The notes: generated from the letters alone by a model not told the origin. DNA of 64,000 nucleotides from Lytechinus pictus (GCF_037042905.1 NC_087245.1:10976001-11040000), one strand, 5' to 3'. Shown: positions 18,801-21,230, counted from the first letter of the stretch. Translations and numbers: made by a program.

Positions 18801-21230
18801 TTTTTTTCTGGTATTTTCACCACAATCTTTTCATCATGGAGAACTTACCCCTTAGGTACCCTATAATAATGCACTGATAATCCTATACATACCTGTTGAT
18901 ATATTCACCAAGAAGGTGAGCTCTGCCATCTCCCAGTTGACCAGACCAACTACCAAACTAATTTCAATAAATAAAGAATAATTTTACATATATACCAGTT
19001 ATCATCCACGAAATTGAACTACAGGTAACTTTATTTACATTTATAATATCTCGGAAACATTATTTTAGAACTGGATTCTAAGGATTCAATCAAAATAGAA
19101 GATTGCTATATAAAACAATTAGAATCCTCATGTGATATCTAGTATACCAATTTTAATGATCTCTATAAAGACATGAATCCTGCTAGGATCCATGATAATG
19201 GGTTTACTTTCTCTTGTCATGTAATAACACTGGCATGAATCCAAGCGTTGAACCATTTGTTCAGGGAGGGGGGGGGGGTGATCTGTTGTTTCATCCTCCC
19301 CACTTAAATAGTATCACATAGGAAATCTTTATCTACAAAATGCAAATGGTATGATATTTTACACAATTTATCATAAAAGAAAATGATTAAAACTATGTAC
19401 CTGATGCCCTCCATAACGATGGGCTAAAGGTATGGATTTATCAAGAAATGTATTTCCAGCAACAAAAGCCACAAATGGTTCAGCTTCTGTCACTAAGGGG
19501 TGCAGGTCTAGTAGACTGCCTAACACATCTTCTGAGTATGCTACAAGCTTTGCCTTGTCCTTGAGTGGAGTTGGGAGAACCTGAGAGAAGATAATATTCT
19601 TCACCTGCCTCACATAATTCTCTTTCATGGGGTCAATTGGAAAAGAATCTGAAAAATGAAAATGGGTTAAATATTACTTTTTTTTCTGTTCAATAAAGAA
19701 TCAAATTAGGCCCAAAATACACATGAGTCGGTTGAAGCCGCCATTGATGTGGGCCTCAAGCCTGCGATTTGGAGCGTATACACATACACCAGAAGTAGAC
19801 TGAATCGAAACTGCTTTGAGATTCTTTATCCATGACGACTATTCAAGTGACACATGTGCCTGTTTTTTCACATCAACATTTTTAATTGTTCGTTAGCAAT
19901 AACTCTTGTTGGCTATTATAGGCCTACCGATTTCTAGTTCAGTGGTCAAGCCGCCTTTAGGTGTAGGCCTGCTCAGTCCAGTCTGGCGATAAAAAATAGT
20001 GAGCATATGCACATCTGTCGAGCCGCCTTCGGGCAGCCGGCCGGCCTCAGTCCACCTTTCGACATAGATCTTGTGTATCTTGGGCCTAAGCCTAGGGCTA
20101 GGCCACTCACACGTTTTGCGAGGTTAGTATGCTATAGGCTAGAGTCAAGTTGAACTTGTGTCAAATTGTCAAATATCAGACACATTAAAATGAAATCACT
20201 TCATATTGCTATGTCTCATCAACTTCAAAGTGGATATAGTGGACTATGCATGGAGAGCTGCTGGAAAATGACGTCACAAATGAAAAACCTAAAATTTCAT
20301 AGAGTCTTGACAGATTTTCATCAAATTAACTTCATGCACCCTTTTTTTCTACAATTTTTCTGTTTTACAAGATTCCCAGGGATACCTAGGAAAGTTTCTG
20401 AATGTAGGCATGTTATGCCTCTGTATTCAGTTCTAGGTTTTTCCTCAACTGAAGATGGCTTGCTCACTTCTGGGAACAGGGCTTTCGTAGTCATATTTTA
20501 TTGGCTCATTTTTCCAGCATCTATCCAGGGCAGCTTCAAAACTGTGCACACTTGGCGCAGTGACAACTTCATTATTTAGGCTATTCCATGTCTTACGTAT
20601 TCTAACATAAAAAGTATTCTTATATTTCTGGGTCTTTGTCCTTGGTATGAACAATTTTTTACTGTGACCTCTGGTATGTTCGCTATATTTTTCTTCTAGA
20701 TTAAGTTTTGTACATTGATCATAATTATTAAAGTGTTTACTATAATTTATACGTTTCAATCATATCACCTCTAACTCTTCGATACGCCAGAGTTGGGATT
20801 TTTAACTGTTTAAATTTCTAATTAATTAAAACCAACTTTCATGTGAACTTCTTGATGAATTTTAAAAGTAATACGTACCAAACAGCAAATGGTTACTGGG
20901 GAAATGCCACTGGGAAAATCTCGTGATGAGAGTATTGCGAATTTTCTTGCTCTGGTAATGTTGGTGGCCCATTTCCAATGCATAGTCAGCTTGTTCAGAT
21001 TCAAAATCAAAATGATCAAAATCATCCTCTGCTCCGTCACCGGCGTGGCTGGCATCGTTGACAGGGCAGGTAATGGGCGTTGCAAAGTATCCATGTCTGC
21101 TGCAACTTTGTTTCTCGTAATGTTTTATTTTCTGATTACTACTACAATTAATAAAATAGAAGAGCAGGACTAAAATAACCGATTCGACCTTCATGTTTTT
21201 GGTGCAGTACAGCTCAGCGCCATTGACCAT
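12813..21230 (-). CDS. SELENOO: SelO/YdiU-family protein adenylyltransferase (Cys-type SELENOO-like). Exons 21230 or 21194-20879, 19648-19401, 18957-18893, 18305-18150, 17575-17420, 16236-16094, 15483-15270, 14719-14593, 13858-13639, 13015-12813
   Basis: Ten phase-compatible GT-AG exons give 615 aa (ATG 21194) or 627 aa (ATG 21230). Family motifs: [78 protein letters not shown] and C-terminal VSCSS. It may be a paralog rather than the Sec-containing ortholog. Confidence 0.93.
17098..17261. mobile_element. hAT-like MITE
   Basis: TIRs CACTAGCGTACCTA / TAGGTACGCCACTG with a perfect 8-bp TSD ATGTGCGG. A related end occurs at ~51300. Confidence 0.85.
20400..20815 (-). mobile_element. LINE (CR1/L2-like) ORF2 3' fragment in SelO intron 1
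   Basis: ORF 20445-20759 reads TRGHSKKL...[12 protein letters not shown]...[12 protein letters not shown], typical of the CR1/L2-group ORF2 C-terminus. Boundaries approximate. Confidence 0.8.

Follow-up and report, generated by a model that had tools for sequence, protein, structure and literature searches.

Reviews describe two AMPylases in animals, the ER-resident FICD and the mitochondrial SelO, in the parts of their text that are available (PMC12409994, PMC8097203). In the accessible text of these and other papers, eukaryotic SelO is either treated as mitochondrial or its location is left unaddressed (PMC12409994, PMC8097203, PMC8668991, PMC12494813, PMC3994087, PMC13519141). A second animal paralog, SELO2, was named by Dudkiewicz et al. 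2012, and the available portion of that paper reports it from Metazoa, including chicken, dog, horse and cow, describes it as missing in primates and rodents, and defines it as not a selenoprotein, with a plain Cxx C-terminus (PMC3281104). The same portion mentions a predicted secretory location for some SELO proteins of non-vertebrates, the clade not being named (PMC3281104). SELO2 differs from the fish-specific duplicate SELENOO2, as far as the available text of the sources goes (PMC3316567, PMC13134290).

Within open PMC and bioRxiv full text, four SELO2 gene ids given in PMC3281104 were found in no other paper, and for the S. purpuratus id there was no match at all. Within the same scope, which lies apart from subscription journals, no title or abstract dealt with a secretory SelO or with a signal peptide of SELO2. 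Signal peptides may already be flagged for single SELO2 entries by the automatic annotation of databases. The gene described here is already annotated and its clade is already named; what is new is the predicted leader across the clade, the Pro at the position of E. coli Cys272, the apparent leader loss in insects, and the Capsaspora sister sequence.

Structure and transcription of the gene

The window, which is the whole 64,000-nucleotide stretch of Lytechinus pictus DNA that was analyzed, contains a gene of ten exons on the minus strand, running from 21230 to 12813, in which all nine introns are GT-AG. The joined frame encodes 627 aa with zero internal stops and the C-terminal end VSCSS, and the product is identical to the Lytechinus pictus RefSeq protein P0422, 'protein adenylyltransferase SelO-like'. 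An earlier version of this RefSeq protein, P0001 (617 aa), starts at the second Met and otherwise exhibits 12 differing alignment columns. The features of the gene, all on the minus strand, are as follows.

20879..21230, minus strand: coding part of exon 1, aa 1-117, with the leader, the Cys-containing linker and the start of the conserved N-terminal extension (the X15 contig covers 20879-21250)
21228..21230, minus strand: upstream ATG, in frame in this assembly and shifted out of frame by indels in two further read sets (reads, contig)
21192..21194, minus strand: second ATG, the likely conserved start, giving the 615-aa form (P0001 and L. variegatus P0423 begin here)
21138..21194, minus strand: predicted signal peptide, 19 aa, possibly cut after residue 17 or 19 (leader character kept across SELO2)
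21150-21179, minus strand: hydrophobic core of the predicted signal peptide, 10 residues (sequence)
21066..21104, minus strand: linker Cys43 and Cys55, a possible lumenal disulfide (SELO2 Cys counts; model confidence is low here)
20994..21038, minus strand: acidic stretch, aa 65-79, lineage-restricted (sequence)
19649..20878, minus strand: intron 1, GT-AG (spliced out at exactly these bounds in the X15 contig)
19401..19648, minus strand: exon 2, start of the SelO domain (gene model, X15 contig)
18893..18957, minus strand: exon 3, G-loop (GDGR) (gene model, alignment)
18150..18305, minus strand: exon 4, catalytic Lys232 and helix-C Glu255 (gene model, alignment)
17420..17575, minus strand: exon 5 (gene model)
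16094..16236, minus strand: exon 6, with the YNDS sequon inside (gene model)
15270..15483, minus strand: exon 7, with Asp379, Asn380, Asp389, the activation loop and Pro405 at the E. coli Cys272 position (gene model, alignment)
14593..14719, minus strand: exon 8 (gene model)
13639..13858, minus strand: exon 9 (gene model, X15 contig)
12813..13015, minus strand: coding part of exon 10, VSCSS followed by TGA, with a tail Cys, not Sec, and without a KDEL-type signal (gene model, X15 contig)

The junction between 20879 and 19648, for which the first-pass annotation had proposed a check of RNA support, was present in one spliced X15 contig (run kind not on record), in which 19401-19648 and 20879-21250 occupy adjacent record positions (625/626), so that both ends are joined exactly and the contig is colinear on to 21250. 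The exon 9-10 junction was present in another X15 contig. In addition, exon-containing bins were covered at low depth in three RNA runs, of which about 6% each was sampled, and the first mates were almost all from the + strand (in the bin 19418-19818, 3.3 vs 0.16, 5.1 vs 0.1, and 1.9 vs 0.05), which in most stranded libraries would indicate a minus-strand RNA. No alternative first exon was seen in the RNA-depth data, which reached 24200: RNA depth was close to nil in the bins at 21824-23427, and the contig was colinear to 21250, while the bins at 21022-21823 are swamped by repeats. A start-site pile-up was not among the features listed. A tblastn search for a second SelO copy found none within the window.

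Repeats are located both near and inside the gene. Perfect 14-bp terminal inverted repeats bound a 162-bp repeat at 21364-21525, which lies some 130 nt upstream of the first ATG; the high read depth on both of its strands indicates a multi-copy element. On the minus strand, stop-free stretches are located at 20445-20759 in intron 1 and at 14254-14439 in intron 8; neither gave a Pfam match, and we take them to resemble the C-terminal ends of LINE reverse transcriptases.

Membership of the SELO2 clade

The Pfam SelO family (PF02696) matched P0001 with an E value of 5.4e-124 (415 bits vs a cut-off of 22.8), and the AlphaFold2 model of P0001 exhibited a SelO kinase-like fold with a mean pLDDT of 86.5, the value being under 50 at residues 14-74, where the model is uninformative for the leader and the linker. 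The top 9 Foldseek matches of the model were all SelO/YdiU (E about 1e-40), and comparison with P. syringae SelO and E. coli YdiU gave TM scores of 0.90-0.94 by target length (6EAC, 0.94). The Pfam search of exon 1 matched no family, and the ESM Atlas search of residues 1-110 gave no usable match.

The SELO2 set comprised 129 proteins of at least 400 aa, including P0001, 13 shorter ones of the initial 142 having been dropped. In the IQ-TREE phylogeny of 36 hand-picked rows (LG+G4), animal SELO2 (15 animal rows) was supported at 97/98, SELO2 together with Capsaspora at 100/96, and SELENOO at 100/100, and the window protein was sister to Strongylocentrotus and Diadema at 100/100 and 100/97. The same SELO2/SELENOO split was observed in a 182-row FastTree. 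In the sea urchin, this gene represents SELO2, a clade of animal SelO paralogs: in the comparison with SELENOO that had been recommended for this gene, its protein groups in SELO2 and not in the mitochondrial SELENOO.

The Capsaspora sister (P0156) would date the SELO2 clade before animals, this row being one with a long branch and an odd composition, whose placement needs care. Two SELO2 loci were found in Lingula anatina (P0053 and P0435), each on a contig for which the same length is given, and the leader-bearing copy has Asn for the catalytic Asp.

The hydrophobic leader and linker

The exon 1 leader, the Cys pair, the acidic stretch and both ATGs were all found where the first-pass annotation had placed them. 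Whether 8, 11, 15 or 19 residues are averaged, the hydrophobicity maximum of the protein falls in the leader (11-mer KD 2.94). The claim that it does not resemble a mitochondrial presequence also held: judged by simple proxies, not by TargetP, it has no Arg in the first 30 residues, a moment of 0.21-0.29, its upper value of 0.29 lying below the SELENOO median of 0.40, and a net charge of 0 to +2, whereas the other SELENOO medians are 4 Arg and +4.

To compare leaders, a home-made rule was used, which asks for an uncharged 10-mer with a mean hydropathy of at least 1.9 within the first 40 residues, followed by small residues at -3/-1. The rule was satisfied by 88/113 SELO2 proteins with a Met start and an N-terminal extension (90/129 of all), by 5/52 SELENOO-like proteins with an extension (5/120 of all SELENOO-like), by 13/149 diverse SelO representatives and by 25/1361 internal-Met controls; the sequence sets are rich in fish and birds, so that p-values overstate independence. 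The 16/129 SELO2 records set aside lacked an extension or a Met start or, in one case, did not match the core pattern, and some of them are partial models. Bird proteins with Trp/Ala-rich leaders, which are hydrophobic by eye, accounted for 13 of the 25 SELO2 misses.

At least one member passing the rule was found in cnidarians, brachiopods, annelids, molluscs, echinoderms, hemichordates, cephalochordates, cartilaginous fish, amphibians, squamates, monotremes/marsupials, and Capsaspora. Among 17 same-species SELO2/SELENOO pairs, 9 had both leaders, and in 9/9 of these the SELO2 leader was more hydrophobic and had fewer Arg. The urchin leader shares only 4-7 of its 22 residues with those of distant phyla; this low identity indicates that the character and not the sequence is kept, as expected for a signal peptide. 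Conservation of the leader in orthologs, which had been named as a point on which the secretory proposal could fall, was thus upheld in character across SELO2, from corals to birds and marsupials. The predicted leader is a property of an ancient paralog clade and not of one gene.

Insects differed. Among ten insect SELO2 records checked, seven damselfly and locust models (P0006, P0433, P0008, P0426, P0427, P0429 and P0430) plainly had neither leader nor linker, one mayfly record starts inside the domain, and two butterfly records narrowly satisfied the rule. The loss in damselfly and locust suggests either that the insect enzyme has relocated to the cytosol or that these models have all missed the same exon. 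In Capsaspora owczarzaki, P0156 begins Arg-rich, continues with a long hydrophobic segment and is more type II anchor-like. Signal-peptide-like starts were also observed outside SELO2, in the SelO proteins P0149, P0154 and P0284, as read from their putative start codons; these hint at independent moves to the secretory pathway.

Downstream of the leader, at least two linker Cys were found in 99/113 SELO2 proteins vs 13/52 for SELENOO. The acidic stretch gave no support to a secretory location, being rare in the clade (at least 7 D/E in 15 residues in 4/113 SELO2). The YNDS and PNTS sequons exist as described, but they do not support ER entry, since PNTS is family-wide and also present in bacterial enzymes, as is the catalytic N-F-S motif. 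Catalytic-domain sequons in general were rejected as ER evidence: there was no enrichment (NxT 0.81 observed vs 0.82 expected), and same-species pairs gave 9 vs 8 (p 0.87).

The proposal of a secretory SelO paralog therefore stands on comparative grounds, which are strong, as the character of the leader is kept across at least 10 animal groups and is unlike that of the same-species mitochondrial paralog, whereas the side arguments from sequons, the dual ATG and the acidic stretch found no support. Overall, the protein is likely to enter the secretory pathway, as predicted from its leader.

Active site and C-terminal tail

The catalytic motifs are intact, as had been claimed: K232, E255, D379, N380 and D389 align with those of the solved SelO enzymes, and the SelO hallmarks are present, namely the G-loop, the Lys, the helix-C Glu, HGV replacing HRD, the shifted catalytic Asp, and the metal-binding Asn/Asp. 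The residues Y, GDGR, K, D, E, N, D, N and D, together with the tail Cys (Cys625), are invariant in 129/129 SELO2 proteins. We regard it as very likely that the protein is catalytically active.

A disulfide between Cys272 and Cys476 regulates E. coli SelO, whose reduced form is more active, according to the available text of the reports (10.1101/692707, PMC7278666, PMC8097203, PMC12894286). The position of Cys272 is occupied by Pro405 in the urchin protein, and by Pro in 129/129 SELO2 proteins, whereas Cys is found in 119/120 SELENOO-like proteins. Without Cys272 the inhibitory disulfide cannot form, so that an oxidising lumen would not be an off-switch by that route. Pro at 272 is not taken as evidence of an adaptation to the lumen, because Pro is also found in 80/149 diverse SelO representatives, and plain inheritance may account for it.

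The tail is CSS in 128/129 SELO2 proteins. The third-last codon of the urchin gene is TGT (Cys) and not the Sec codon UGA, and Sec read-through of the TGA was rejected, because this TGA comes after the terminal Ser-Ser of the family.

Proposed function and alternatives

We propose that the product is a signal-peptide-bearing, soluble, lumenal or secreted AMP-transferase, not redox-locked, that would AMPylate proteins of the secretory pathway, a reading for which we see the chances as evenly balanced. Translation would begin mainly at 21194, and the 19-aa leader would be cleaved on ER entry, leaving a flexible linker with a probable disulfide ahead of the kinase-like domain. With no anchor and no KDEL-type signal, the protein would pass through the ER and the Golgi and would possibly be secreted. 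It would bind ATP in the flipped SelO orientation and AMPylate Ser/Thr/Tyr of secretory-pathway proteins, using lumenal ATP in the manner of Fam20C-type kinases, with the supply of Mg/Mn-ATP past the ER being assumed. Fam20C-type kinases draw on lumenal ATP. Whether protein AMPylation would be the main job of SELO2 is, taken by itself, close to an even question.

The same secretory route could instead serve an enzyme whose main job is the hydrolysis of NAD+ (or of another nucleotide) to NMN and AMP, that is, a lumenal or ecto-NADase. In the available text of a commentary on Jia et al., SelO is reported to act as an NADase that depends on Mn, cannot do without the C-terminal CSS tail and works better at alkaline pH, and the tail Cys is dispensable for AMPylation (PMC13391479). 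The tail required for this activity is thus retained in nearly all SELO2 proteins even though the Cys that would be its disulfide partner is gone, suggesting another use for it, and YdiU-NAD structures were among the top fold matches. However, almost every SelO protein keeps the tail, which serves as a site of self-AMPylation as well in the accessible text of the SelO literature (10.1101/692707, PMC7278666, PMC8097203 or PMC12894286), so that its retention is silent on which activity is meant, and all of the ATP- and metal-binding residues are kept as well. We regard an NADase as the main function as rather unlikely, and as the chief rival of the AMP-transferase.

The leader could also be an uncleaved signal anchor that holds a cytosolic catalytic domain on the ER or on the mitochondrial outer membrane, where ATP would be plentiful. 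Basic residues follow the core in the urchin protein and in two other close urchins scored, with a flank charge difference (C-N) of +1 (615 form) or +2 (627 form) here and +3 in L. variegatus; the urchin protein is thus one of the few SELO2 members with a basic flank, a result that also speaks against the secretory reading. In addition, a 19-mer above KD 1.6 occurs within the first 45 residues in 47/129 SELO2 proteins, and the leaderless insect forms show that the clade can exist without ER entry. Against this, the core is shorter than the signal-anchor length of about 18 or more, with 10 residues here and a median of 11 in the clade (at least 18 in 1/88 rule-passing SELO2), and the best 19-mer here reaches a KD of only 1.49. 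The flank charge difference is at or below 0, which favours a lumenal C-terminus, in 84/88 SELO2, and small-residue cleavage sites follow the core. The linkers are moreover Cys-rich and carry sequons in 80/113 SELO2 vs 37 expected, an excess that is mostly vertebrate, with 5/23 hand-picked invertebrates having one and the urchin protein none. We consider an anchored, cytosol-facing enzyme improbable, and a cleaved leader with a lumenal or secreted domain is retained as the preferred topology.

A secreted protein might in turn be catalytically silent, or only bind nucleotides, if Asn380 were glycosylated or if cofactors were lacking in the lumen. The metal-(Mg-)binding Asn380 lies within an N-F-S sequon in 126/129 SELO2 and could be glycosylated in the ER, which is a possible liability, and the one leader-bearing Lingula copy has the catalytic Asp replaced by Asn. 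The catalytic positions are, however, invariant in 129/129 proteins from cnidarians to mammals, which would be hard to explain without selection for catalysis, making a silent protein a very improbable reading beside the active AMP-transferase.

Start codons

The two ATGs, at 21230 and 21194, are both in frame in this assembly, as had been described. Between them, one extra base (+1) was observed in 4/4 X20 reads, and the X15 contig had four bases added and five missing (+4, -5). The distance from 21230 to 21194 is therefore 37 or 35 rather than 36, and the ATG at 21230 is out of frame in X20 and X15. The second Met is the start in P0001 and in L. variegatus P0423, whereas RefSeq P0422 starts at the first ATG. 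Because the indels break the 21230 frame and these two proteins start at the second Met, the 12-residue extension is probably allele-dependent and no targeting switch, and the targeting role that had been suggested for the ATG pair found no support. A dual start as a fixed feature was rejected in view of the frame-shifting indels in the two read sets.

The 5' leader seems to be polymorphic at 21190-21235. Under the X20 +1 indel, another upstream ATG (21223) gains the frame of 21194, within the window interval 21190-21235, and 21230 would open an overlapping upstream frame.

That starts at 21230 and 21194 give two isoforms with different targeting, a side idea of the first-pass annotation, is hardly credible: this assembly has the two ATGs in one frame, each in good context, the X15 contig to 21250 spans both and RefSeq P0422 uses the first, but the indels in X20 and X15 separate their frames, P0001 and P0423 use the second, and the 615- and 627-aa forms both satisfy the same home-made signal-peptide rule.

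Comparison with known systems

If the proposed reading is true, SELO2 would be a third animal AMPylase, and flipped-ATP chemistry or NADase activity would take place in the lumen or the extracellular space. In its broadest form, for which belief and doubt weigh about the same, SELO2 would be a third animal AMPylase class, secreted or Golgi-lumenal and of pre-animal origin, without the inhibitory disulfide, AMPylating secretory proteins or hydrolysing extracellular NAD+; most animals, fish, birds and marsupials among them, would have retained it, while it would have become cytosolic in insects, and it would have been overlooked via its loss in primates and rodents. Since the available text of the source reports it missing in primates and rodents (PMC3281104), SELO2 would be no explanation for human lumenal AMPylation, e.g. 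of PLD3.

The window protein shares with SELO2, an unofficial clade name, its membership, its Cxx tail (VSCSS) and its character as a paralog found from cnidarians to some mammals.

With the mitochondrial SELENOO and yeast Fmp40, it has the SelO fold and active-site residues in common, so that AMPylase/NADase chemistry is plausible by homology. In contrast, the SELENOO leader is Arg-rich and amphipathic (median 4 Arg/30 aa vs 1 in SELO2; net charge +4 vs 0), SELENOO forms a separate clade at 100/100, and it has Cys at 272 in 119/120 proteins vs Pro in SELO2. SELENOO records mostly stop at xVT, where Sec would be expected, whereas the urchin gene has Cys.

The bacterial SelO/YdiU enzymes (6EAC, 6K20, 6III, 9JYM) resemble the window protein with about 40% domain identity (E 6e-120), TM scores of 0.9-0.94 and a shared SCSS tail; they are without an N-terminal leader or linker, and those of E. 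coli and P. syringae retain the activation-loop Cys.

FICD/HYPE, the known ER AMPylase, makes the same modification (AMP on Ser/Thr/Tyr), as given in the accessible text of the sources, and shares with SELO2 the predicted compartment. It has a Fic fold, is ER-resident and is bifunctional, whereas the fold of SELO2 is kinase-like and its sequence showed no retention signal.

Fam20C and its kin are kinase-fold modifiers of secreted proteins in the available source text, and their likeness to SELO2 serves here as a working analogy. They transfer the gamma-phosphate, unlike the reaction predicted for SELO2, and the comparison covers the fold alone.
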